Virus record (IMG/VR): IMGVR_UViG_2563366848_000003
Length of the DNA: 35,269 nt
Source: a virus
Lineage: Duplodnaviria > Heunggongvirae > Uroviricota > Caudoviricetes
Direction: 5' to 3' (one strand)
Shown: in pieces, positions 1,852-21,175 of the stretch
Numbering within the stretch: position 1 is the stretch's first letter
Layout of the letters: each line of letters starts with the position of its first letter
Position numbers and translations under genes: made by a program
The notes under the pieces: generated by a model
Seen by the model: the letters and a program-made list of their open reading frames with translations, nothing else
Told to the model about the DNA's origin: nothing
Databases searched by the model: none

Positions 1852-2267
1852 GTTTTGCCCTGAAACTGGCGCGTGAGATGGGGCGACCCGACTGGCGCGC
1901 CATGCTTGCCGGGATGTCATCCACGGAGTATGCCGACTGGCACCGCTTTTACAGTACCCATTATTTTCATGATGTTCTGCTGGATATGCACTTTTCCGGG
2001 CTGACGTACACCGTGCTCAGCCTGTTTTTCAGCGATCCGGAGATGCATCCGCTGGATTTCAGTCTGCTGAACCGGCGCGAGGCTGACGAAGAGCCTGAAG
2101 ATGATGTGCTGATGCAGAAAGCGGCAGGGCTTGCCGGAGGCGTTCGTTTTGGCCCGGACGGGAATGAAGTTATCCCCGCTTCCCCGGATGTGGCGGACAT
2201 GACGGAGGATGACGTAATGCTGATGACAGTATCAGAAGGGATCGCAGGAGGAGTCCGGTATGGCTGA
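1429..2267 (+). CDS. T: tail assembly chaperone G-T fusion made by programmed -1 ribosomal frameshift
   Basis: The -1 frame downstream of the slippery site has no ATG but is open to 2267 (VFDGELSFALKLAREMGRPDWRAMLAGMSSTEYADWHRFY..., lambda gpT-like). The T frame overlaps the H start at 2260. Confidence 0.85.
1827..1833 (+). other. slippery heptamer G GGA AAG for the G/GT -1 frameshift
   Basis: GGGAAAG sits in the G reading frame as X XXG GGA AAG, 19 nt before the G stop. This is the canonical lambda G-T shift site. Confidence 0.85.
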
Positions 2268-4839
2268 ACCGGTAGGCGATCTGGTCGTTGATTTGAGTCT
2301 GGATGCGGCCAGATTTGACGAGCAGATGGCCAGAGTCAGGCGTCATTTTTCCGGTACGGAAAGTGATGCGAAAAAAACAGCGGCAGTCGTTGAACAGTCG
2401 CTGAGCCGACAGGCACTGGCTGCACAGAAAGCGGGGATTTCCGTCGGGCAGTATAAAGCCGCCATGCGTATGCTGCCTGCACAGTTCACCGACGTGGCCA
2501 CGCAGCTTGCAGGCGGGCAGAACCCGTGGCTGATCCTGCTGCAACAGGGTGGTCAGGTGAAGGACTCCTTCGGCGGGATGATCCCCATGTTCAGGGGGCT
2601 TGCCGGTGCGATCACCCTGCCGATGGTCGGGGCCACCTCGCTGGCGGTGGCGACCGGTGCGCTGGCGTATGCCTGGTATCAGGGCAACTCAACCCTGTCT
2701 GATTTCAACAAAACGCTGGTCCTTTCCGGTAATCAGGCAGGACTGACGGCAGATCGTATGCTGATCCTGTCCAGAGCCGGGCAGGCGGCAGGGCTGACGT
2801 TTAACCAGACCAGCGAGTCACTCAGTGCGCTGGTTAAGGCGGGGGTAAGCGGTGAGGCTCAGATTGCGTCCATCAGCCAGAGTGTGGCGCGTTTCTCCTC
2901 TGCATCCGGCGTGGAGGTGGACAAGGTCGCTGAAGCCTTCGGGAAGCTGACCACTGACCCGACGTCGGGGCTGACGGCGATGGCGCGCCAGTTCCATAAC
3001 GTGACGGCGGAGCAGATTGCGTATGTTGCTCAGTTGCAGCGTTCCGGCGATGAAGCCGGGGCATTGCAGGCGGCGAACGAGGCCGCAACGAAAGGGTTTG
3101 ATGACCAGACCCGTAAACTGAAAGATAACATGGGTACGCTGGAGACCTGGGCAGACAAGACTGCACAGGCATTCAAATCCATGTGGGATGCGGTGCTGGA
3201 TATTGGTCGCCCGGACTCCTCTGCAGATATGCTCGCCAAAGCTGAAAAGGCTTTTGATGAAGCGGATAAAAAATGGCAGTGGTATCAGAGCCGGAGCCAC
3301 CGGCGCGGTAAAACGTCAGCATTTCTTGCCAATCTCCGGGGGGCATGGGAGAAGAGAGAGAATGCGCGACTTGGGCTTTCAGCCGCCACGTTGCAGGCAG
3401 ATCTTGAAAAGGCCAGTGAGATGGCAGCAAAAGATCGGGCCGAGTCTGAGGCATCACGGCTGAAATATACCGAAGAGGCGCAGAAGGCTTACGAACGCCT
3501 GCAGACACCGCTGGAGAAATATACCGCCCGCCAGGAGGAACTGAATAAGGCTCTGAAAGACGGAAAAATCCTGCAGGCAGATTACAACACGCTGATGGCG
3601 GCGGCGAAAAAGGACTATGAAGCGACGCTGAAAAAGCCGAAGCAGTCCGGCGTGAAAGTGTCTGCGGGCGATCGTCAGGAAGACAGTGCTCATGCTGCCC
3701 TGCTGACGCTTCAGGCAGAACTCCGGATGCTGGAGAAGCATGCCGGAGCGAATGAGAAAATCAGCCAGCAGCGCCGGGATTTGTGGAAGGCAGAAAGTCA
3801 GTTCGCGGTACTGGAGGAGGCGGCGCAACGTCGCCAGCTGTCTGCACAGGAGAAATCCCTGCTGGCGCATAAAGATGAGACGCTGGAGTACAAACGCCAG
3901 CTGGCTGCACTTGGCGACAAGGTTACGTATCAGGAGCGCCTGAACGCGCTGGCGCAGCAGGCGGATAAATTCGCACAGCAGCAACGGGCAAAACGGGCCG
4001 CCATTGATGCGAAAAGCCGGGGGCTGACTGACCGGCAGGCAGAACGGGAAGCCACGGAACAGCGCCTGAAGGAACAGTATGGCGATAATCCGCTGGCGCT
4101 GAATAACGTCATGTCAGAGCAGAAAAAGACCTGGGCGGCTGAAGACCAGCTTCGCGGGAGCTGGATGGCAGGCCTGAAGTCCGGCTGGAGTGAGTGGGAA
4201 GAGAGCGCCACGGACAGTATGTCGCAGGTTAAAAGTGCAGCCACGCAGACCTTTGATGGTATTGCACAGAATATGGCAGCGATGCTGACCGGCAGTGAGC
4301 AGAACTGGCGCAGCTTCACCCGTTCCGTGCTGTCCATGATGACAGAAATTCTGCTTAAGCAGGCAATGGTGGGGATTGTCGGGAGTATCGGCAGCGCCAT
4401 TGGCGGGGCTGTTGGTGGCGGCGCATCCGCGTCAGGCGGTACAGCCATTCAGGCCGCTGCGGCGAAATTCCATTTTGCAACTGGAGGATTCACAGGAACC
4501 GGCGGCAAATATGAGCCAGCGGGGATTGTTCACCGTGGTGAATTTGTCTTCACGAAGGAGGCAACCAGCCGGATTGGCGTGGGGAATCTCTACCGGCTGA
4601 TGCGCGGCTATGCCACCGGTGGTTATGTCGGTACACCGGGCAGTCTGGCTGACAGCCGGTCGCAGGCGTCCGGGACGTTTGAGCAGAATAACCATGTGGT
4701 GATTAACAACGACGGCACGAACGGGCAGATAGGTCCGGCTGCTCTGAAGGCGGTGTATGACATGGCCCGCAAGGGTGCCATTGATGAAATTCCCACGCAG
4801 ATGCGTGATGGTGGCCTGTTCTCCGGAGGTGGACGATGA
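2260..4839 (+). CDS. H: tail tape measure protein H
   Basis: 859-aa ORF with a coiled-coil-rich centre and a Gly-rich C-terminal region; N-terminus MAEPVGDLVVDLSLDAARFDEQMARVRRHF as in lambda gpH (853 aa). Stop overlaps the M start. Confidence 0.95.
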   Translation: MAEPVGDLVVDLSLDAARFDEQMARVRRHFSGTESDAKKTAAVVEQSLSRQALAAQKAGISVGQYKAAMRMLPAQFTDVATQLAGGQNPWLILLQQGGQVKDSFGGMIPMFRGLAGAITLPMVGATSLAVATGALAYAWYQGNSTLSDFNKTLVLSGNQAGLTADRMLILSRAGQAAGLTFNQTSESLSALVKAGVSGEAQIASISQSVARFSSASGVEVDKVAEAFGKLTTDPTSGLTAMARQFHNVTAEQIAYVAQLQRSGDEAGALQAANEAATKGFDDQTRKLKDNMGTLETWADKTAQAFKSMWDAVLDIGRPDSSADMLAKAEKAFDEADKKWQWYQSRSHRRGKTSAFLANLRGAWEKRENARLGLSAATLQADLEKASEMAAKDRAESEASRLKYTEEAQKAYERLQTPLEKYTARQEELNKALKDGKILQADYNTLMAAAKKDYEATLKKPKQSGVKVSAGDRQEDSAHAALLTLQAELRMLEKHAGANEKISQQRRDLWKAESQFAVLEEAAQRRQLSAQEKSLLAHKDETLEYKRQLAALGDKVTYQERLNALAQQADKFAQQQRAKRAAIDAKSRGLTDRQAEREATEQRLKEQYGDNPLALNNVMSEQKKTWAAEDQLRGSWMAGLKSGWSEWEESATDSMSQVKSAATQTFDGIAQNMAAMLTGSEQNWRSFTRSVLSMMTEILLKQAMVGIVGSIGSAIGGAVGGGASASGGTAIQAAAAKFHFATGGFTGTGGKYEPAGIVHRGEFVFTKEATSRIGVGNLYRLMRGYATGGYVGTPGSLADSRSQASGTFEQNNHVVINNDGTNGQIGPAALKAVYDMARKGAIDEIPTQMRDGGLFSGGGR

Positions 4840-5165
4840 AAACCTTCCGCTGGAAAGTGAAACCCGGTATGGATGTGGCTTCGGCCCCTTCTGTAAGAAA
4901 GGTGCGTTTTGGTGATGGCTATTCCCAGCGAGCGCCTGCCGGGCTGAATGCCAACCTGAAAACGTACAGCGTGACGCTTTCTGTCCCCCGTGAGGAGGCC
5001 ACGGTACTGGAGTCGTTTCTGGAAGAGCACGGGGGCTGGAAATCCTTTCTGTGGACGCCGCCTTATGAGTGGCGGCAGATAAAGGTGACCTGCGCAAAAT
5101 GGTCGTCGCGGGTCAGTATGCTGCGTGTTGAGTTCAGCGCAGAGTTTGAACAGGTGGTGAACTGA
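4836..5165 (+). CDS. M: tail tip assembly protein M
   Basis: 109-aa ORF (MKTFRWKVKPGMDVASAPSVRKVRFGDGYSQRAPAGLNANLKTYSVTLSVP...) matching lambda gpM; ATGA overlap with H. Confidence 0.93.
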   Translation: MKTFRWKVKPGMDVASAPSVRKVRFGDGYSQRAPAGLNANLKTYSVTLSVPREEATVLESFLEEHGGWKSFLWTPPYEWRQIKVTCAKWSSRVSMLRVEFSAEFEQVVN

Positions 5166-5863
5166 TGCAGGATATCCGGCAGGAAACACTGAATGAATGC
5201 ACCCGTGCGGAGCAGTCGGCCAGCGTGGTGCTCTGGGAAATCGACCTGACAGAGGTCGGTGGAGAACGTTATTTTTTCTGTAATGAGCAGAACGAAAAAG
5301 GTGAGCCGGTCACCTGGCAGGGGCGACAGTATCAGCCGTATCCCATTCAGGGGAGTGGTTTTGAACTGAATGGCAAAGGCACCAGTACGCGCCCCACGCT
5401 GACGGTTTCTAACCTGTACGGTATGGTCACCGGGATGGCGGAAGATCTGCAGAGTCTGGTCGGCGGAACGGTGGTCCGGCGTAAGGTTTACGCCCGTTTT
5501 CTGGATGCGGTGAACTTCGTCAAAGGAAACAGCGATGCCGATCCGGAGCAGGAGGTGATCAGCCGCTGGCGCATCGAGCAGTGCAGCGAACTGAGCGCGG
5601 TGAGTGCCTCCTTTGTACTGTCCACGCCGACGGAAACGGATGGCGCTGTTTTTCCGGGACGTATCATGCTGGCCAACACCTGCACCTGGACCTATCGCGG
5701 TGACGAGTGCGGTTATAGCGGTCCGGCTGTCGCGGATGAATATGACCAGCCAACGTCCGATATCACGAAGGATAAATGCAGCAAATGCCTGAGCGGTTGT
5801 AAGTTCCGCAATAACGTCGGCAACTTTGGCGGCTTCCTTTCCATTAACAAACTTTCGCAGTAA
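5165..5863 (+). CDS. L: tail tip assembly protein L
   Basis: 232-aa ORF (MQDIRQETLNECTRAEQSASVVLWEIDLTEVGGERYFFCNEQNEKGE...) matching lambda gpL; C-terminal Cys cluster (CSKCLSGC). Confidence 0.93.
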   Translation: MQDIRQETLNECTRAEQSASVVLWEIDLTEVGGERYFFCNEQNEKGEPVTWQGRQYQPYPIQGSGFELNGKGTSTRPTLTVSNLYGMVTGMAEDLQSLVGGTVVRRKVYARFLDAVNFVKGNSDADPEQEVISRWRIEQCSELSAVSASFVLSTPTETDGAVFPGRIMLANTCTWTYRGDECGYSGPAVADEYDQPTSDITKDKCSKCLSGCKFRNNVGNFGGFLSINKLSQ

Positions 5864-5868
5864 ATCCC

Positions 5869-6612
5869 ATGACACAGACAGAATCAGCGATTCTGGCGCA
5901 CGCCCGGCGATGTGCGCCAGCGGAGTCGTGCGGCTTCGTGGTGAGAACGCCGGAGGAGGAAAGCTATTTTCCCTGCGTGAATATCTCCGGTGAGCCGGAG
6001 GCGTATTTCCGTATGTCGCCGGAAGACTGGCTGCAGGCAGAAATGCAGGGTGAGATTGTGGCGCTGGTCCACAGTCATCCCGGTGGTCTGCCCTGGCTGA
6101 GTGAGGCCGACCGGCGGCTGCAGGTGCAGAGTGATTTGCCGTGGTGGCTGGTCTGCCGGGGGACGATTCATAAGTTCCGCTGTGTGCCGCATCTCACCGG
6201 GCGGCGCTTTGAGCACGGTGTGACGGACTGTTACACACTGTTCCGGGATGCTTATCATCTGGCGGGGATTGAGATGCCGGACTTTCATCGTGAGGATGAC
6301 TGGTGGCGTAACGGCCAGAATCTCTATCTGGATAATCTGGAGGCGACGGGGCTGTATCAGGTGCCGTTGTCAGCGGCACAGCCGGGCGATGTGCTGCTGT
6401 GCTGTTTTGGTTCATCAGTGCCGAATCACGCCGCAATTTACTGCGGCGACGGCGAGCTGCTGCACCATATTCCTGAACAACTGAGCAAACGAGAGAGGTA
6501 CACCGACAAATGGCAGCGACGCACACACTCCCTCTGGCGTCACCGGGCATGGCGCGCATCTGCCTTTACGGGGATTTACAACGATTTGGTCGCCGCATCG
6601 ACCTTCGTGTGA
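5869..6612 (+). CDS. K: tail tip assembly protein K (JAMM/MPN + NlpC/P60 domains)
   Basis: 247-aa ORF with the JAMM metalloprotease motif HSHPGGLPWLSEAD (H-x-H-x7-S-x2-D) and a Cys/His pair in the C-terminal half consistent with NlpC/P60 (GVTDCYTLF ... HHIP). Its 3' end overlaps I by 103 nt. Confidence 0.88.
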   Translation: MTQTESAILAHARRCAPAESCGFVVRTPEEESYFPCVNISGEPEAYFRMSPEDWLQAEMQGEIVALVHSHPGGLPWLSEADRRLQVQSDLPWWLVCRGTIHKFRCVPHLTGRRFEHGVTDCYTLFRDAYHLAGIEMPDFHREDDWWRNGQNLYLDNLEATGLYQVPLSAAQPGDVLLCCFGSSVPNHAAIYCGDGELLHHIPEQLSKRERYTDKWQRRTHSLWRHRAWRASAFTGIYNDLVAASTFV

Positions 6613-7181
6613 AAACGGGGGCTGAAGCCATCCGGGCACTGGCCACACAGCTCCCGGCGTTTCGTCAGAAACTGAGCGACGGCTGGTATCAGGTACGGAT
6701 TGCCGGGCGGGACGTCAGCACGTCCGGGTTAACGGCGCAGTTACATGAGACTCTGCCTGATGGCGCTGTGATTCATATTGTTCCCAGAGTCGCCGGGGCC
6801 AAGTCAGGTGGCGTATTCCAGATTGTCCTGGGGGCTGCCGCCATTGCCGGATCATTCTTTACCGCCGGAGCCACCCTTGCAGCATGGGGGGCAGCCATTG
6901 GGGCCGGTGGTATGACCGGCATCCTGTTTTCTCTCGGTGCCAGTATGGTGCTCGGTGGTGTGGCGCAGATGCTGGCACCGAAAGCCAGAACTCCCCGTAC
7001 ACAGACAACGGATAACGGTAAGCAGAACACCTATTTCTCCTCACTGGATAACATGGTTGCCCAGGGCAATGTTCTGCCTGTTCTGTACGGGGAAATGCGC
7101 GTGGGGTCACGCGTGGTTTCTCAGGAGATCAGCACGGCAGACGAAGGGGACGGTGGTCAGGTTGTGGTGATTGGTCGCTGA
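6510..7181 (+). CDS. I: tail tip assembly protein I
   Basis: 223-aa ORF (MAATHTLPLASPGMARICLYGDLQRFGRRIDLRVKTGAEAIRALATQLPAF...) matching lambda gpI; Gly/Ala-rich hydrophobic C-terminal half. Confidence 0.9.
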   Translation: MAATHTLPLASPGMARICLYGDLQRFGRRIDLRVKTGAEAIRALATQLPAFRQKLSDGWYQVRIAGRDVSTSGLTAQLHETLPDGAVIHIVPRVAGAKSGGVFQIVLGAAAIAGSFFTAGATLAAWGAAIGAGGMTGILFSLGASMVLGGVAQMLAPKARTPRTQTTDNGKQNTYFSSLDNMVAQGNVLPVLYGEMRVGSRVVSQEISTADEGDGGQVVVIGR

Positions 7182-7241: not shown

Positions 7242-10200
7242 ATGGGTAAAGGCAGCAGTAAGGGGCATACCCCGCGCGAAGCGAAGGACAACCTGAAGTC
7301 CACGCAGCTGCTGAGTGTGATCGATGCCATCAGCGAAGGGCCGGTTGAAGGTCCGGTGGATGGATTAAAAAGCGTGCTGCTGAACAGTACGCCGGTGCTG
7401 GACAGTGAGGGGAATACCAATATATCCGGCGTCACGGTGGTGTTCCGGGCCGGTGAGCAGGAGCAGACACCGCCGGAGGGATTTGAATCCTCCGGCTCCG
7501 AGACGGTGCTCGGTACAGAAGTGAAATATGACACGCCGATCACCCGGACCATCACGTCGGCAAACATTGACCGTCTGCGTTTTACTTTCGGCGTGCAGGC
7601 ACTGGTGGAAACCACCTCAAAGGGGGACAGGAATCCATCGGAAGTCCGCCTGCTGGTTCAGATACAACGTAACGGTGGCTGGGTGACGGAAAAAGACATC
7701 ACCATTAAGGGCAAAACCACCTCGCAGTATCTGGCCTCGGTGGTGGTGGGTAACCTGCCGCCGCGCCCGTTCAATATCCGGATGCGCAGGATGACGCCGG
7801 ACAGCACCACAGACCAGCTGCAGAACAAAACGCTCTGGTCGTCATACACCGAAATCATCGATGTGAAACAGTGCTACCCGAACACGGCACTGGTCGGCGT
7901 GCAGGTGGATTCGGAGCAGTTCGGCAGCCAGCAGGTGAGCCGTAATTATCATCTGCGCGGGCGCATTCTGCAGGTGCCGTCGAACTATAACCCGCAGACG
8001 CGGCAATACAGCGGTATCTGGGACGGAACGTTTAAGCCAGCATACAGCAACAACATGGCCTGGTGTCTGTGGGATATGCTGACCCATCCGCGCTACGGCA
8101 TGGGGAAACGTCTTGGTGCGGCGGATGTGGACAAATGGGCGCTGTATGTCATCGGCCAGCATTGCGATCAGTCGGTGCCGGACGGTTTTGGCGGCACGGA
8201 GCCGCGCATCACCTGTAATGCGTACCTGACCACACAGCGCAAGGCGTGGGATGTGCTCAGTGATTTCTGCTCTGCGATGCGCTGTATGCCGGTATGGAAC
8301 GGGCAGACGCTGACGTTCGTGCAGGACCGACCGTCGGATAAGGTGTGGACCTATAACCGCAGTAATGTGGTGATGCCGGATGATGGTGCGCCGTTCCGCT
8401 ACAGCTTCAGCGCCCTGAAGGACCGCCATAATGCCGTTGAGGTGAACTGGATTGACCCGAATAACGGCTGGGAGACGGCGACAGAGCTTGTGGAGGACAC
8501 GCAGGCCATTGCCCGTTACGGTCGTAACGTCACGAAGATGGATGCTTTTGGCTGTACCAGCCGGGGGCAGGCACACCGCGCCGGGCTGTGGCTGATTAAA
8601 ACAGAACTGCTGGAAACGCAGACCGTGGACTTCAGCGTGGGTGCCGAAGGGCTTCGCCATGTACCGGGCGATGTCATTGAAATCTGCGATGATGACTATG
8701 CCGGTATCCGCACCGGCGGGCGCGTGCTGGCGGTAAACAGCCAGACCCGGACGCTGACGCTCGACCGTGAAATCACGCTGCCATCTTCCGGCACCACGCT
8801 GATAAGCCTGGTTGACGGGCAGGGGAGTCCGGTCAGCGTGGAGGTTCAGTCCGTCACCGACGGCGTGAAGGTGAAAGTGAGCCGTGTTCCTGACGGCGTT
8901 GCTGAATACAGCGTATGGGGGCTGAAGCTGCCGACGTTGCGCCAGCGCCTGTTCCGCTGCGTGAGTATCCGTGAGAACGACGACGGCACGTATGCCATCA
9001 CCGCCGTGCAGCATGTACCGGAAAAAGAGGCCATCGTGGATAACGGGGCGCACTTTGACGGCGACCAGAGCGGCACGGTAAATGGTGTCACGCCGCCAGC
9101 GGTGCAGCACCTGACCGCAGAAGTCACCGCAGACAGCGGGGAATACCAGGTGCTGGCCCGCTGGGACACGCCGAAGGTGGTGAAGGGCGTGAGCTTCCTG
9201 CTTCGCCTGACCGTGGCAGCGGATGACGGCCGTGAGCGGCTGGTCAGCACGGCCCGGACGACGGAAACCACTTACCGCTTCACACAACTGGCTCTGGGGA
9301 ACTACAGGCTGACAGTCCGGGCAGTAAATGCGTGGGGGCAGCAGGGCGATCCGGCGTCGGTATCGTTCCGGATTGCCGCACCGGCAGCGCCGTCGCGGAT
9401 TGAGCTGACGCCGGGCTATTTTCAGATAACCGCCACGCCGCATCTTGCGGTTTATGACCCGACGGTACAGTTTGAGTTCTGGTTCTCGGAAAAACGGATT
9501 GCGGATATCAGGCAGGTTGAAACCAGCGCGCGTTATCTTGGTACGGCACTGTACTGGATAGCCGCCAGTATCAATATCAAACCGGGCCATGATTATTATT
9601 TTTACGTTCGCAGTGTGAACACCGTTGGCAAATCGGCATTCGTGGAGGCTGTCGGTCAGCCGAGTGATGATGCATCAGGCTATCTGGATTTTTTCAAAGG
9701 CGAGATAGGGAAAACCCATCTGGCTCAGGAGCTGTGGACGCAGATTGATAACGGTCAGCTTGCGCCTGACCTGGCTGAAATCAGGACGTCCATTACGGAT
9801 GTCAGCAATGAAATCACACAGACCGTCAATAAGAAACTGGAAGACCAGAGTGCAGCGATCCAGCAGATACAGAAGGTTCAGGTTGATACAAATAATAATC
9901 TGAACAGCATGTGGGCTGTGAAGCTGCAACAGATGAAGGACGGACGCCTTTATATTGCGGGTATCGGTGCCGGTATTGAGAATACGCCAGCAGGAATGCA
10001 GAGTCAGGTGCTGCTGGCGGCAGACAGGATTGCGATGATTAATCCTGCGAATGGCAACACAAAACCGATGTTTGTTGGTCAGGGTGATCAGATATTCATG
10101 AATGAAGTGTTCCTGAAGCGCCTGACGGCCCCCACCATTACCAGCGGCGGCAATCCTCCGGCCTTTTCCCTGACACCGGACGGAAAGCTGACCGCTAAAA

Positions 10201-10724
10201 ATGCGGATATCAGTGGCAGTGTGAATGCGAACTCCGGGACGCTCAACAACGTCACGATTAATGAGAACTGTCAGATTAAGGGGAAACTGTCAGCCAATCA
10301 GATTGAAGGCGATATTGTCAAAACGGTCAGCAAGTCTTTCCCCCGCACGAGCACTTATGCCAGTGGCACCATCACGGTAAGAATCAGTGATGATCAGAAA
10401 TTTGACCGGCAGGTCATGATACCGCCAGTGTTATTCCGCGGTGGTAAGCATGAGAATTTCAACAGTAATAACCAACAGTCATACTGGTATTCAACCTGCC
10501 GGTTAAGAGTGACCCGCAATGGTCAGGAGATTTTTAATCAGTCCACGACGGATGCTCAGGGCGTATTTTCCTCCGTTATAGATATGCCTGCCGGACAGGG
10601 GACGCTGACACTGACATTCACCGTATCTTCATCAGGAGCGAATAACTGGACACCAACAACCAGTATCAGCGATCTGCTGGTTGTGGTGATGAAAAAATCC
10701 ACAGCAGGTATCAGTATCAGCTGA
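7242..10724 (+). CDS. J: tail tip central fibre / host specificity protein J
   Basis: 1160-aa ORF; N-terminal ~950 aa read as lambda gpJ ([54 protein letters not shown]...). The last ~250 aa carry the receptor-binding region. Confidence 0.95.
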
Positions 10725-10790: not shown

Positions 10791-11390
10791 ATGCGTAAAC
10801 TTTATGCCGCCATTTTGTCCGCAGCCATCTGTCTGGCCGTATCCGGTGCGCCTGCATGGGCGTCTGAACATCAGTCCACGCTGAGCGCGGGCTATCTTCA
10901 TGCCTCGACGAACGTTTCCGGCAGCGATGATCTGAACGGGATTAACGTGAAATACCGTTATGAGTTTACGGACACGCTGGGAATGGTGACGTCATTCAGC
11001 TATGCAGGAGACAAGAATCGCCAGCTTACCCGTTACAGCGATACCCGCTGGCATGAAGATTCCGTGCGTAACCGCTGGTTCAGCGTAATGGCGGGGCCGT
11101 CTGTGCGCGTGAATGAATGGTTCAGCGCGTATGCGATGGCGGGTGTGGCTTACAGCCGTGTGTCGACTTTCTCCGGGGATTATCTCCGCGTAATTGACAA
11201 CAAGGGGAAAACGCACGACGTGCTGACCGGAAGTGATGACGGTCGCCACAGCAACACGTCTCTGGCGTGGGGAGCTGGCGTGCAGTTTAACCCGACCGAA
11301 TCCGTGGCCATTGATATTGCTTATGAAGGCTCCGGCAGTGGTGACTGGCGCACTGACGGTTTCATCGTGGGTGTCGGTTATAAATTCTGA
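10791..11390 (+). CDS. lom: Lom outer-membrane beta-barrel protein (Ail/Lom family)
   Basis: 199-aa ORF with a signal peptide ([24 protein letters not shown]), alternating beta-strand pattern and C-terminal ...GVGYKF; located after J as in lambda. SD GAGAGG upstream. Confidence 0.9.
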
Positions 11391-11416
11391 TTAGCCAGGT
11401 AACACAGTGTTATGAC

Positions 11417-11443
11417 AGCCCGCCGGTTCAGGCGGGCTTTTTT
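11417..11443 (+). terminator. rho-independent terminator after lom
   Basis: AGCCCGCCggttcaGGCGGGCT followed by TTTTT. Confidence 0.6.
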
Positions 11444-11454
11444 GTGGGGGGAAT

Positions 11455-14349
11455 ATGGCAGTACGGATTTCAGGTGTACTGAAAGATGGCGCAGGTAAGC
11501 CGATACAAAACTGCACCATTCAGCTAAAGGCCAGGCGCAACAGCACCACGGTGGTGGTGAACACAGTGGCCTCAGAAAACCCGGATGAAGCCGGGCGTTA
11601 CACAATGGACGTCGAGTATGGTCAGTACAGCGTCAGTCTGTTGGTGGAGGGATTCCCGCCGTCACACGCCGGGATTATCACCGTATATGAGGACTCAAAG
11701 CCGGGCACACTGAATGATTTCCTCGGTGCAATGACGGAGGATGATGTCCGGCCAGAGGCACTGCGCCGTTTTGAACTGATGGTGGAAGAGGTGGCGCGTA
11801 ACGCGTCCGCAGTGGCACAGAACACGGCAGCCGCGAAGAAGTCAGCCGGCGATGCCGGCACATCTGCCCGTGAGGCGGCAACCCATGCGACTGATGCTGC
11901 AGGCTCAGCACGCGCAGCCAGCACGTCAGCCGGACAGGCCGCTTCGTCGGCTCAGTCAGCGTCTTCCAGCGCAGGAACGGCATCAGCAAAGGCCACTGAA
12001 GCATCAAAAAGTGCTGCCGCTGCAGAGTCCTCAAAAAGCGCGGCGGCCACCAGTGCCGCTGCGGCAAAAACGTCAGAAACGAATGCGGCAGCGTCACAAC
12101 AATCAGCAGCCACTTCAGCATCCACCGCAACCACGAAAGCGTCAGAAGCTGCCACCTCAGCCCGGGATGCGTCGGCTTCAAAAGAGGCGGCAAAATCATC
12201 AGAAACGAGCGCAGCCTCGAGCGCCAGCAGCGCAGCTTCCTCGGCAACGGCGACAGCAAATTCTGCGAAGGCGGCAAAAACGTCCGAGACGAACGCCAAG
12301 GCTTCTGAAACGGCAGCGGGACAGAGTGCCTCAGCTGCGGCAGGCTCAAAAACAGCGGCTGCGTCGTCTGCCAGTGCCGCGTCAACAAGTGCCGGGCAGG
12401 CCTCAGCCAGTGCCACCGCCGCCGGAAAATCGGCAGAAAGTGCTGCATCGTCCGCTTCAACAGCCACAACGAAGGCTGGCGAAGCCGCTGTACAGGCCAG
12501 CGCAGCAGCGAGGTCTGCTTCCGCAGCGAAGACATCCGAAACGAATGCGAAAGCGTCGGAAACCCGTGCAGAATCCTCAAAAACGGCAGCCGCATCGTCC
12601 GCCAGTTCGGCAGCGTCATCGGCATCATCTGCGTCTGCTTCAAAAGATGAGGCGACCAGACAGGCGTCAGCAGCGAAGGGCAGCGCCACGACGGCATCCA
12701 CGAAAGCAACAGAGGCGGCAGGCAGTGCGACGGCAGCATCTCAGAGCAAAACTGCTGCTGAATCCGCTGCGACCCGTGCGGAAGCTGCTGCTGATCGTGC
12801 TGAAGAGATTGCCGGTGCAGTTGCGATGGAAGACGCAAGCCTTACAACTAAAGGTGTTGTGAAACTTAGCAGTGCTGTTGATAGCACCAGTGAATCGCTG
12901 GCCGCAACGCCAAAAGCAGTTAAAGCAGCCAATGACAATGCGAATAGCAGGGTGCCATCTAACCGAAAAGTTAACGGAAAAGCACTGACTGCGGATATAA
13001 CATTAACGCCGAAAGATATTGGTACTTTAAATTCAGTAACGATGTCTTTCTCTGGCGGGGCTGGGTGGTTCAAACTGGCTACGGTTACCATGCCACAAGC
13101 GAGTTCCATCGTTTACATCGCATTGATTGGTGGCGCTGGTTACAACGTCGGTTCCCCACATCAGGCAGGCATTTCAGAACTGGTTCTACGAGCAGGCAAT
13201 GGAAACCCCAAAGGAATTACCGGGGCTTTGTGGAAGCGTACAGCCGTCGGATTAACGAATTTCGCCTGGATCAACACATCCGGCGATACATATGATATTT
13301 ACGTTGAGATTGGCAATTATGCGACTCGTGTAAATATCCATTGGGATTGTACTGCAAATGCGACAGTTTCTATTTATACATCGCCAACATATTCAGCGAG
13401 TAAGCCTTCCAGCGTTACCGATGGTGTTGTTTATACGATGTATAGCACACATCAGAAACCGACGCCGTTAGATATTGGAGCACTGCCAACAACCGGAGGA
13501 ACAGTTTCAGGTCCGTTGTCTGTTACAGGTGGATTAACTGGTTCATTGAATGGTAATGCAAGTACAGCCACGAAATTGCAGACGGCAAGATCTATCGGTG
13601 GAGTTGTTTTCGACGGTTCTGCAAATATTAACCTTCCAGGTGTAAACACTACGGGTAATCAGAACACCACTGGTAATGCTGCAACTGCCACAAAACTACA
13701 GACTGCACGGAATATCAACGGCGTTCCGTTTGACGGCACGAAGGATATTACGCTTACGCCTAAAGATCTGGATGCCTACAGCAAAAGCGAAGTACAGAGC
13801 GCACTGGCGGGCAAACAACCGCTGGACAATACGCTGACTAATTTGAGTGGAAAGGATGTAGCTGGTCTTCTCGCATACCTTGGTTTGGGCGAAACGATAA
13901 ATAAAGCCTCCGGAGCTATGCAGAAATCGGCTAATGGAGCTGATATTTCTGATGTATCAGCCTTCCGAAATGCGCTCCAGTTAGGGACCGCCGCAACACG
14001 AGATGTTGGAGCAGATAATGCCTCGAAGTTACTGGATTTAGACAGCTTCAGGTCAATGATGTCAGGGAATGGCTACATCTACATTCCATGCATTGCGACG
14101 ACAGGAAACCCGGTGAAACTTATGTTGCAGTGGGGAACGGTGGCAACACAAAAGGGAGCTGATGCTGGATATGCCTTACCATTTGCTTTTCCCTATGCAG
14201 GCTTATTTGCGACCGGAAACCGTGGAACATCTGGCTACAATGCCGCGATGAATGTGCGTATTGCCAGCAGAACGCATATCAGTATTCAGAACTGGTCGCC
14301 ATCCGGAGAGGGCACCGAAGATTGTTGTTTTATCGCGCTGGGGTATTAA
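11455..14349 (+). CDS. stf: side tail fibre protein Stf (extended, 964 aa)
   Basis: N-terminus MAVRISGVLKDGAGKPIQNCTIQLKARRNSTTVVVNTVASENPDEAGRY as in lambda Stf; ~300-aa Ala/Ser/Thr-rich region; two phage tail fibre repeat motifs (ATKLQTAR-x-I-x-GV-x-FDG); distinct C-terminal domain ending ...FIALGY. Confidence 0.9.
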   Translation: MAVRISGVLKDGAGKPIQNCTIQLKARRNSTTVVVNTVASENPDEAGRYTMDVEYGQYSVSLLVEGFPPSHAGIITVYEDSKPGTLNDFLGAMTEDDVRPEALRRFELMVEEVARNASAVAQNTAAAKKSAGDAGTSAREAATHATDAAGSARAASTSAGQAASSAQSASSSAGTASAKATEASKSAAAAESSKSAAATSAAAAKTSETNAAASQQSAATSASTATTKASEAATSARDASASKEAAKSSETSAASSASSAASSATATANSAKAAKTSETNAKASETAAGQSASAAAGSKTAAASSASAASTSAGQASASATAAGKSAESAASSASTATTKAGEAAVQASAAARSASAAKTSETNAKASETRAESSKTAAASSASSAASSASSASASKDEATRQASAAKGSATTASTKATEAAGSATAASQSKTAAESAATRAEAAADRAEEIAGAVAMEDASLTTKGVVKLSSAVDSTSESLAATPKAVKAANDNANSRVPSNRKVNGKALTADITLTPKDIGTLNSVTMSFSGGAGWFKLATVTMPQASSIVYIALIGGAGYNVGSPHQAGISELVLRAGNGNPKGITGALWKRTAVGLTNFAWINTSGDTYDIYVEIGNYATRVNIHWDCTANATVSIYTSPTYSASKPSSVTDGVVYTMYSTHQKPTPLDIGALPTTGGTVSGPLSVTGGLTGSLNGNASTATKLQTARSIGGVVFDGSANINLPGVNTTGNQNTTGNAATATKLQTARNINGVPFDGTKDITLTPKDLDAYSKSEVQSALAGKQPLDNTLTNLSGKDVAGLLAYLGLGETINKASGAMQKSANGADISDVSAFRNALQLGTAATRDVGADNASKLLDLDSFRSMMSGNGYIYIPCIATTGNPVKLMLQWGTVATQKGADAGYALPFAFPYAGLFATGNRGTSGYNAAMNVRIASRTHISIQNWSPSGEGTEDCCFIALGY
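11850..12800 (+). repeat. intragenic low-complexity Ala/Ser/Thr coding repeats within stf
   Basis: Reiterated peptide units (AAKTSETNAKASE, SAASSASSAASSA) and matching DNA motifs such as gcggcaaaaacgtc[ac]ga[ag]acgaa at ~12061 and ~12274; similar unit at ~12523. These drive the long shadow ORFs on both strands (11678-12838, 11852-12862, 11952-12701). Confidence 0.8.
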
Positions 14350-14351
14350 GA

Positions 14352-14762
14352 ATGAATAAATTTTATAAAGGCTCTTTCTATCCGAAAGCACTAAAAGAGG
14401 TATATATCAGCGCCGGTTCATGGCCTGAAAATGGCGTTGATGTTGATGATGAAACAATGGCAATTTACACAGGCGTAGCGCCACAAGGCAAAACGCTGGG
14501 GGCTGATAAAAATGGTAATCCTGCGTGGATTGATATCCCGCCACTCTCCGCTGAACAACAGATTATTCAGGCTGAACAGAAAAGAACGGTATTGCGTTCT
14601 ATGGCTGATAAGGAAATAGCCTGGAGACAGGATGCTTTTGATGCGGAAATCGCGACGGCAGAAGAAACCGCCGCGTTATCTGAATGGAAAAAATACCGGG
14701 TCTTGCTGATGCGCGTTGATACAGCAAAACCCGTATGGCCTGTCAATCCGCAGGATATTTAA
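14352..14762 (+). CDS. tfa: tail fibre assembly protein Tfa
   Basis: ATG at 14352 directly after the stf stop (MNKFYKGSFYPKALKEVY...); conserved Tfa C-terminal motif ETAALSEWKKYRVLLMRVDTAKPVWPVNP. The tabulated start at 14322 overlaps stf and is less likely. Confidence 0.85.
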   Translation: MNKFYKGSFYPKALKEVYISAGSWPENGVDVDDETMAIYTGVAPQGKTLGADKNGNPAWIDIPPLSAEQQIIQAEQKRTVLRSMADKEIAWRQDAFDAEIATAEETAALSEWKKYRVLLMRVDTAKPVWPVNPQDI

Positions 14763-14976
14763 CGGGGGCGTTGTAGGTGGTGACATATTCAAGCAGTTCT
14801 GTTGGATATGTCACCGTTGCTGCATCTCGCTCTACGTTAAATGTATCCGCTCCCCAGATAACACACTCCCTCAAAAATGCCTCCACCTCTGGCGAGACTT
14901 CAACCGCATCATCAGGTCGCTCTTGTTCAGAAACATAAAAACCAACGGTCGTTGGGCTGAAATACATATTCTCCAT
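14743..14976 (-). pseudogene. inverted alternative tail-fibre assembly gene tfa' (N-terminal 77 aa only)
   Basis: Minus-strand ORF MENMYFSPTTVGFYVSEQ... has a Tfa-type N-terminus (YFS...GFY) but lacks the conserved Tfa C-terminal domain; its 3' end overlaps tfa. Confidence 0.45.
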
Positions 14977-20465: not shown

Positions 20466-21175
20466 TATGCTGAAAGCATTTTTTAGCTTAATTTTTATAC
20501 TGCGCGTTGACTTATCACCCTATCATATATGATTTTTAGGTGTTGCATAGACTGGTTTTATATCAGGGGCTTAGGTTGTATGTGGCGTCACAGAATCACT
20601 AATCATTGAACTTTGTACATGTAACAGTCCGGTTAAATAATATATAATGGGTTGTTAAGTTGGCTCTCTGATTCCTGATGCCCCAAGGACGCGCGTCATT
20701 GCGTGCCAGATTAACTTTTCGTCGGGCACAGTGCTATCGGCAATTATTTCCTCAGCCTCTTTCCCGCATAGGTCTTGGCGCATCCATTTTCTTGCTATGA
20801 AATCTCCAGCCGGTCAGACTGAAAGTATAGAAGAGAATATGCGAATCGCTGTTCCGGTGTTTCTGGGAGAGCTTATGTCGGAGTAATTCCCCGGTAATTG
20901 AATCTCTTTTGCTCGCTCATAACAGACATTCACTACAGTTATGGTAGAAAGTATGTATGCTGATTGGGGAAAGTGTGAAAGAAAAGAAGACTGCTGCGCT
21001 GTTTGTCGTCACGTTTATCTTCATTGGCTATGCAAGTCATAATACAAGGTGGGACAAAACTGAGACACATAAGGCCTCACAATGGCTTGCAAGGCTTTAC
21101 ATGTTTTGATGTGGTGGGACGTGTGAGCACAGTGTTGATGGGGTAATACTTTGAATTAGAAGCGGATTCTTATAA

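Follow-up and report, generated by a model that had tools for sequence, protein, structure and literature searches.

Gene K of phage lambda and its homologues are the closest described relatives of the gene analyzed here. Lambda K was listed among the JAMM proteins in 2003 (PMC300881), in a paper that also gives the motif E-x(n)-H-S/T-H-x7-S-x2-D. Iyer et al. (2006; PMC1779556) described TAPK as a JAB domain joined to an NlpC/P60 domain, beside TAPI, whose N terminus adopts a ubiquitin fold of the ThiS/MoaD type that ends with a conserved Gly, and predicted that K releases this ubiquitin-like domain. The two-domain architecture of K was published in these two papers, and PGAP already gives the longer product, so that neither is new. 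In the lambda reference (J02459 and NC_001416), K is annotated at 14276 to 14875 as a product of 199 aa, leaving a gap of 148 nt after gene L. UniProt TIPK_LAMBD also gives 199 aa, compared to 247 aa in the PGAP annotation, and a 2020 review (PMC7291167) that analyzed "199 residues" saw only the peptidase domain.

Here, we followed up an earlier note on K in a 35,269-nt stretch of DNA from a tailed phage (IMG/VR record IMGVR_UViG_2563366848_000003), hereafter the window. The new elements are that the 199-aa figure is traced to a single base missing from the reference and that the short form is shown to be still propagating. We consider it very likely that K is a 247-aa protein with two peptidase domains, acting as a nonstructural tip assembly factor whose JAB domain cleaves gpI, and that the 199-aa K is an artifact of annotation.

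The K gene of the window and its two peptidase domains

The full-length K coding sequence occupies positions 5869 to 6612 of the plus strand as an unbroken open reading frame (ORF) with an ATG start (247 aa, 28.3 kDa). The earlier note had described a continuous ORF of this length directly after L, and the gene map agrees: gene L (5165 to 5863, plus strand; minor tail or tail tip protein, 232 aa; Pfam Phage_tail_L, E = 8 × 10−101) ends with TAA at 5861 to 5863, followed by a 5-nt spacer (ATCCC) and then the ATG of K, which begins 6 nt past the L stop. Downstream, gene I (6510 to 7181, plus strand; 223 aa; Pfam Lambda_tail_I), which encodes the protein that K is proposed to cleave, shares 103 nt (6510 to 6612) with the end of K in a different frame. 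By Pfam and sequence comparison, gpI carries an N-terminal ubiquitin-like domain (residues 14 to 97, nt 6549 to 6800) ending in ...VPRVAG96-A, then a hydrophobic linker rich in Gly and, at the C terminus, a plug domain. Gene J (7242 to 10724, plus strand; central tail fiber and host specificity, 1,160 aa), identified from the ORF list and the annotation of near-identical Escherichia coli prophages, completes the conserved block L-K-I-J. Together with gene H (2260 to 4839, 859 aa), the order H, M, L, K, I, J is that of a typical lambda tail-tip module. K therefore has the placement expected of TAPK and lambda gpK, between L and I/J and beside a gpI with a ubiquitin-like domain. The exact protein is already present in RefSeq (WP_001619149.1, "C40 family peptidase," from E. 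coli KTE154), and 4,403 of 5,426 complete E. coli genomes have close copies of this region (median, three copies). Window K is an ordinary, very common gene of a lambda-like prophage.

Residues 3 to 104 of K (5875 to 6180, plus strand) form a JAB/MPN+ (JAMM) metallopeptidase domain, matching Pfam Prok-JAB (PF14464) at positions 3 to 112 of 114 (E = 2 × 10−14; 53.8 bits against a cut-off of 25). A JAMM motif had been noted previously in this ORF, and we found it to be complete: E19 ... H68-S69-H70-x7-S78-x2-D81, with the catalytic Glu (E19) encoded at 5923 to 5925 (plus strand), upstream of Met49, and the block from H68 to D81 at nt 6070 to 6111. In 26 sequences of 33 to 58% identity, H68, S69, H70, and D81 were invariant, and E19 and S78 were each present in at least 90%. 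The earlier note was right that HSHPGG...SEAD is present, but this block lies downstream of Met49 and is common to the 199- and 247-aa forms; missing from the shorter form are the first helix, two β-strands, and the catalytic Glu of the JAB domain. In the AF2 model (pLDDT 86 to 93 for residues 1 to 40; 74 to 93 for residues 1 to 70), residues 3 to 36, comprising one helix and two strands, sit within the JAB fold. Foldseek assigned an MPN fold, with the best matches to Pyrococcus furiosus JAMM1 (5lda and 5ld9), followed by Rpn11 and CSN5; 2kks was also matched, and in the PDB sequence comparison its alignment begins at K residue 4. No solved structure of K or a close homologue was found in the PDB.

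The C-terminal half (residues 111 to 224; 6199 to 6540, plus strand) is an NlpC/P60 (C40) cysteine peptidase domain that matches the whole of Pfam PF00877 (NLPC_P60; profile positions 1 to 105 of 105; E = 6 × 10−13; 49.2 bits against a cut-off of 23). The Cys/His pair previously thought to fit this family corresponds to a putative triad in the sequence, C121 (6229 to 6231), H187 (6427 to 6429), and H199 (6463 to 6465), all on the plus strand. In distant homologues, C121 was retained in at least 90%, and H187 and H199 were invariant. The structural model of this half was of moderate confidence (pLDDT 49 to 89), and Foldseek matched it to the NlpC/P60 autolysins 9ubf and 4hpe at E values of about 10−3. 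We also considered filing K under NCBIfam TIGR02219 (phage_NlpC_fam, putative phage cell wall peptidase); this assignment was rejected, since the score of 23.9 is below the curated cut-off of 81.9.

A missing base in the lambda reference and the start of K

The earlier note had given a reference K of about 199 aa, in line with the J02459 and NC_001416 annotations, and had suggested alignment with lambda K entries. This alignment showed that window K is 99% identical to the 247-aa K of resequenced lambda and that one G is absent from J02459 and NC_001416. The base, at window position 6003 (plus strand), falls between reference positions 14266 and 14267 in the context GGAGGC[G]TATTTCC, about 10 nt upstream of the annotated reference ATG. 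In J02459, the ORF directly after L runs out of frame past "...EPEA" and stops after 76 codons, leaving a separate ORF of 199 aa. The short annotation can thus be explained by the missing G, which shifts the first 45 codons out of frame, such that the next in-frame ATG (Met49) was taken as the start.

The G-less allele was present in 4 of 125 matching phage records (J02459, NC_001416, OR474059, and OR974322), whereas all other lambda and lambda-hybrid records carried the G (DE3, imm434, imm21, KT232076, PV340536, and LC730321). In IMG/VR, a 27-mer containing the G was found in at least 120 contigs, and the corresponding G-less 26-mer matched 0 contigs. The lambda gt10 transgene of the MutaMouse, sequenced by NGS, carries "14266 C>CG" in all of its copies when compared with the sequence derived from the reference (PMC6760142, Table 5). 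This variant table was the only trace of the discrepancy in the literature that we searched; we found no paper on the K start or on the 14266 discrepancy as such, and PMC11739229, PMC3224144, PMC10695390, and PMC5737525 are silent on both. The lambda record LC730321 differs from J02459 by 12 single nucleotide polymorphisms and 3 indels, one of which is the additional G. These differences rule it out as a resequencing of the J02459 stock; it represents an independent lineage and is not a direct test of sequencing error.

The simplest reading of these sequence comparisons is that the 1982 record contains an error here or a change private to it. Contexts such as GGC[G]T, in which the base lies, are prone to band compression on early sequencing gels. 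Alternatively, the stock sequenced in 1982 could truly have carried the deletion as a mutation, which would imply a viable phage with a split or truncated K. OR474059 and OR974322 share the G-less allele and might be taken as support for this reading. However, OR474059 (strain lambdaS3243) is flagged "UNVERIFIED" and has reference coordinates, and OR974322, a lambda record of 48,496 bp obtained from cloacal swabs of chickens, matches the reference in coordinates and gene naming, leading us to suspect that it was assembled or annotated against the reference. A further point in favor of a real mutation is phage mEp332, which has another frameshift in the same region. Given the band compression context, the presence of the G in every other lambda record and in lambda gt10, and the lack of G-less contigs in IMG/VR, we regard a real mutation as very unlikely. 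As a separate observation, the frameshift in the mEp332 record (PV340541), from a viable laboratory phage, is a different 1-nt deletion in the N-terminal region and lies in a homopolymer; should this deletion be genuine and not a sequencing error in the run of five G, the JAB N terminus would not need to be intact.

The question of whether K is 247 aa, 199 aa, or both turns on codons 1 to 48 (5869 to 6012, plus strand), which encode helix 3 to 15, strands 20 to 26 and 31 to 36, and E19 and are missing from the 199-aa annotation. If translation began only at the internal ATG at 6013, K would be an NlpC/P60 protein of 199 aa and 5869 to 6012 an untranslated spacer. This is the annotation not only in J02459, NC_001416, and UniProt TIPK_LAMBD but also in OM418626, and about 11,000 member sequences fall in four 199-aa clusters among the matches listed, compared to more than 35,000 in 247-aa clusters. 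However, the putative spacer has the properties of coding sequence. The 48-residue N-terminal fragment alone matches Prok-JAB positions 3 to 41 (E = 1.8 × 10−5) and bears the conserved catalytic Glu. On the same profile, the 199-aa form reaches 23.3 bits, under the Pfam cut-off of 25. In 13 homologues of 68 to 95% identity, 18 of the 48 N-terminal positions were invariant. Conservation extended down to 33% identity: across 25 more distant homologues, G22 and N38 were invariant, and P17, E19, C21, and F47 were retained in at least 90%; the element P-x-E-x-CG in this stretch contains the JAMM catalytic glutamate. Most homologues have Ile or Val at position 49 and therefore lack an internal start codon there.

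Selection on the region was measured against the orthologues of Stx phages (84 to 85% nucleotide identity). pN/pS was 0.12 to 0.18 for codons 1 to 48 versus 0.16 to 0.17 for codons 49 to 214; the N-terminal 48 residues are under purifying selection indistinguishable from that on the rest of the gene. Related viral contigs were of only 96 to 99% identity and useless for measuring divergence. A pN/pS of 0.55 for codons 1 to 48, obtained from IMG/VR loci fetched by an exact 27-mer, was discarded as misleading because the loci had been selected on that very region and the three substitutions of the window were counted every time.

Homologues were collinear with the longer protein. By tblastn, a homologue was found in 1,744 phage genomes, including HK97, T1-like, Klebsiella, Vibrio, Pseudomonas, Acinetobacter, and Ralstonia phages; the match covered at least 80% of the 247-aa query in 1,717 of these, and among the matches listed it usually started at query residue 3 to 8. 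In a search of 1.8 billion representatives, most of the distant full-length homologues listed likewise had their N termini within about 10 residues of the K start. In HK97 and ES18, the annotated homologues (K, 236 aa, and gp27, 239 aa, respectively) also start at the L stop. An intact 247-codon ORF was present in 99 of 106 fully covered IMG/VR loci, all of which had been selected with an exact 27-mer from within the N-terminal region. The earlier note had argued for the longer protein from the continuity of the ORF. The longer protein is supported, but openness by itself is weak evidence, given the chance probability of ∼0.15 for an open 48-codon extension in DNA of this local composition; the weight comes instead from homology and conservation, that is, from the JAB profile match, the invariant residues, pN/pS, and the collinear homologues.

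One argument for the internal start is its putative ribosome binding site. No Shine-Dalgarno sequence precedes 5869 (anti-SD duplex, +0.7 kcal/mol), whereas an SD-like GGAGG at 5997 to 6001 precedes the internal ATG (Met49, 6013 to 6015; 5997 to 6015 in all, plus strand) with a 10-nt gap and an anti-SD duplex of −9.5 kcal/mol; a ribosome binding site is annotated there in OM418626. Gene callers that weight SD sequences would consequently pick Met49 even on an intact ORF. Consistent with this explanation, both of the 199-aa gene calls examined (2/2) sit on intact 247-codon ORFs starting 6 nt after L, and the reference annotation was built on a record with the missing base. Given these data, we attach almost no credence to translation from 6013 only. 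Because no SD is present at 5869, K is probably translated from this start by coupling to the termination of L.

The same SD-like site raises a second alternative, in which K is made as two isoforms, the 247-aa protein and an internally started 199-aa protein (NlpC/P60 with a crippled JAB), with separate roles, comparable to C/Nu3 and S105/S107 of lambda. In favor of this reading, Met49 was kept in 81 of 81 distinct close relatives. Beyond the closest lambda group, however, neither Met49 nor the SD is kept, and Stx phages, at 85% nucleotide identity, already have Ile49. Moreover, GGAGG arises from codons 42 to 45 (GAG CCG GAG GCG), which encode E42, P43, and E44. In the closer homologues E42 is invariant and P43 nearly so, indicating that the site can be a by-product of coding, and its spacing of 10 to 11 nt exceeds the optimum. 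Separate roles for two isoforms therefore appear improbable to us, although in a lesser variant an internally started 199-aa isoform may also exist in the lambda subgroup. Taken together, the sequence, domain, conservation, and selection data all favor the 247-aa K as the predicted product.

The consequences of the short form are practical. J02459, NC_001416, and UniProt TIPK_LAMBD carry a K without 48 residues, including the deubiquitinase-like catalytic Glu, and anyone expressing, modeling, or mutating lambda K from the reference entry works with a truncated enzyme. Thousands of automatic gene calls still truncate K, and, for the close homologues of K that were listed, the short form makes up roughly one in four member sequences. 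Two groups have used this lambda reference for CRISPRi guide design or Ribo-seq mapping.

Proposed role of K in tail-tip assembly

In the mechanism that we propose, translation of K would begin at the ATG at 5869, 6 nt past the stop codon of L, and would probably be coupled to L termination. The resulting protein has two predicted activities: a deubiquitinase-type JAB/MPN+ zinc metallopeptidase at the N terminus (E19, H68, H70, S78, and D81) and a C-terminal papain-like NlpC/P60 cysteine peptidase (C121, H187, and H199). The JAB domain would remove the N-terminal ubiquitin-like domain of gpI, probably by cutting after the conserved Gly (G96) in ...VPRVAG-A. Cleavage would be timed after gpI has joined J, L, and the C terminus of the tape measure protein in the tip complex and would constitute a proteolytic checkpoint in tail-tip assembly.

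Several published observations bear on this model. A summary of a 2025 meeting plenary (PMC12908700) states that the deubiquitinase-like domain of gpK cuts the ubiquitin-like domain off gpI; the summary credits the cleavage to the deubiquitinating (JAB) domain and does not mention the NlpC/P60 domain, which is just as conserved. By cryo-electron microscopy, the lambda tip shows only residues 134/135 to 222/223 of gpI, bound to the C terminus of gpH (PMC12617516 and PMC10721106). gpK is required for tail assembly (PMC12617516), yet mass spectrometry of lambda virions did not find it (PMC10721106), and it is present in no tail-tip map (PMC12617516 and PMC10721106). In the F-pyocin system, the N terminus of PA0640, the gpI homologue, can be seen in stalled tips but is missing from mature particles; deletion of the K homologue PA0639 yields tip-less tubes; and PA0639 itself is absent from the particles (bioRxiv 10.64898/2026.02.24.707460). 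The absence of K from virions despite its requirement in assembly, together with the F-pyocin parallels, suggests that K is a nonstructural maturation peptidase.

These observations also bear on an alternative in which K is mainly a cell wall hydrolase whose NlpC/P60 domain cuts peptidoglycan cross-links at infection in the manner of tail-associated lysins. The NlpC/P60 family is known chiefly for its peptidoglycan endopeptidases, the Foldseek matches include Clostridium difficile autolysins, and K has a weak similarity to TIGR02219 and is named "cell wall-associated hydrolase" in some database entries. However, an enzyme acting at infection fits poorly with a protein that is missing from lambda virions, tail-tip maps, and F-pyocin particles alike and whose deletion in the F-pyocin causes an assembly defect. 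In addition, the TIGR02219 similarity falls well short of the family cut-off, and the NlpC/P60 domain of K is fused to a deubiquitinase-type domain and encoded beside a protein carrying a ubiquitin-like domain. Given the absence of K from particles and the low TIGR02219 score, a role as peptidoglycan hydrolase is distinctly unlikely.

If K is a maturation peptidase, its second domain could have a target of its own. One idea is that the NlpC/P60 domain is the protease that cuts the tape measure protein gpH to gpH* and gpHC, making K a two-headed enzyme that times both cleavages; we consider this rather doubtful. The catalyst of the gpH cleavage is still stated to be unknown (PMC12617516). Separately, we note that the C terminus of gpH sits directly on gpI in the tip.

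Comparison with known systems

Window K is closest to lambda gpK (UniProt TIPK_LAMBD/AAA96551, 199 aa; 247 aa in corrected records such as PV340536), with 244 of 247 residues identical. The C-terminal 199 residues are 100% identical, and the three differences between lambda and the window (R26S, E30G, and S32R) are all located in a variable loop of the N-terminal segment. The DNA of L-K-I is 99.2% identical to that of phage lambda, and the order L-K-I-J, the 103-nt overlap of K with I, and the domains of K are the same in both. In contrast, H is 853 aa in lambda and 859 aa in the window, and J is 1,132 aa and 1,160 aa, respectively, indicating that the window is a relative of lambda and not lambda itself. 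Compared to the canonical reference, the only larger difference in K is the 48 residues that the reference lacks through its missing G. Other K homologues (27 to 50% identity in distant members) share the two-domain architecture, the place between L and I/J, and the conserved JAMM and Cys-His-His residues, with no substantive difference from window K.

With the NlpC/P60 (MEROPS C40) endopeptidases, K shares the whole-profile match to PF00877 and the Cys/His/His residues, and its model, of moderate confidence in this half, matched autolysin catalytic domains. K differs from these enzymes and from TIGR02219 in that it is absent from virions and its knockout is an assembly defect; the substrate of its NlpC/P60 domain may be protein rather than murein.

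The N-terminal half of K resembles the JAMM/MPN+ isopeptidases, including P. furiosus JAMM1 (5lda, with SAMP2), the desampylase HvJAMM1, Rpn11, and CSN5. They share the E...HxH...S..D motif and a fold that matches K with a Foldseek TM score of 0.66 to 0.67 (target normalized) and an rmsd of 2.7 Å over about 110 columns. We considered and rejected an assignment of K as a desampylase, since its score on the equivalog model NF041370 (29.4 bits) is far under the cut-off of 130; K is related to these enzymes in fold and is not a desampylase orthologue. As for K, the partner of these isopeptidases is a ubiquitin-like β-grasp domain ending in Gly. Unlike them, K would cut a peptide bond within gpI rather than an isopeptide conjugate, and, unlike the archaeal and eukaryotic enzymes, it is fused to a second peptidase domain.

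Start of gene I

Gene I, the 3' neighbor of K, carries two competing start assignments. In the lambda reference, it begins with an ATG at window position 6510 (6510-7181), encodes 223 aa, and overlaps K by 103 nt. In contrast, PGAP and the resequenced lambda record PV340536 place the start at a GTG at 6609, overlapping the K stop codon, to give a product of 190 aa. Gene I was located at 1710-2282 in the sequence with handle L215 and at 1745-2317 in that with handle L004. As an observation on the annotation itself, the problem with gene I is the mirror image of that with K. When the two forms of gpI were matched to the Pfam profile of the ubiquitin-like (Ubl) domain, the 223-aa form covered profile positions 2 to 83, whereas the 190-aa form covered only positions 26 to 83. 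For the 223-aa form, both Met1 and the Shine-Dalgarno sequence (-8.5 kcal/mol) are conserved. In Stx phages, residue 14 of gpI is Leu. Because of this profile coverage, the conserved Met1 and Shine-Dalgarno sequence, and Leu14 in the Stx phages, the 190-aa call probably truncates the Ubl domain of gpI.

N-terminal region of K and the opposite strand

The K proteins of the window and lambda differ at three residues (R26S, E30G, and S32R), with the other 244 residues identical. All three fall within residues 26 to 32 (window 5944-5964), in a single short loop that connects beta-strands 1 and 2 of the JAB domain; in family alignments, this loop is the most variable N-terminal stretch. The record of phage mEp332 (PV340541) carries a 1-nt deletion in a GGGGG run in the K N-terminal region (about 706-712 in the sequence with handle L207, corresponding to about 5955-5960 in the window), which is distinct from the 1-nt change in the lambda reference J02459. 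K of mEp332 is annotated as 233 aa, with a start further downstream. Either this is a sequencing error in a homopolymer, or mEp332 is viable despite a disruption of the JAB N terminus.

Three long antisense ORFs lie on the minus strand opposite L (5063-5875; 270 aa), K (5884-6288; 134 aa), and J (7842-9590; 582 aa). These are presumably shadow frames, which commonly contain few stop codons where coding DNA is GC-rich.

Discrepancies among lambda records

Relative to J02459, the independent lambda lineage LC730321 has an additional G at 14266/7, a G deleted at 138, a C inserted at 20833 (where laboratory lambda has its known stf frameshift), and 12 SNPs. Since the position 138 deletion is common to LC730321 and lambda gt10, whose variant list also contains it (137 AG>A; PMC6760142), this position may be a second reference-specific discrepancy of J02459.

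GenBank also files lambda-identical sequence under unrelated hosts. L-K-I of MW057783 ("Campylobacter phage CJLB-4") is 99.2% identical, and assemblies of Staphylococcus aureus and Bacillus paralicheniformis are also named as sources of the 199-aa lambda K. OR974322 ("isolate P6/2022/SA," from a chicken cloacal swab) has the allele lacking G at 14266/7, found elsewhere among 125 phage records only in the reference and OR474059. These records appear to stem from contamination with lambda control DNA or from assembly guided by the reference.

Relationship of the window to lambda

The tape-measure protein H (2260-4839) is 859 aa in the window versus 853 aa in lambda, and J (7242-10724) is 1,160 aa versus 1,132 aa. 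Downstream of J (10791-14349) are a 199-aa ORF and then a 964-aa ORF (11455-14349). These differences mark the window as a lambda relative whose host-range end differs, rather than as lambda itself.
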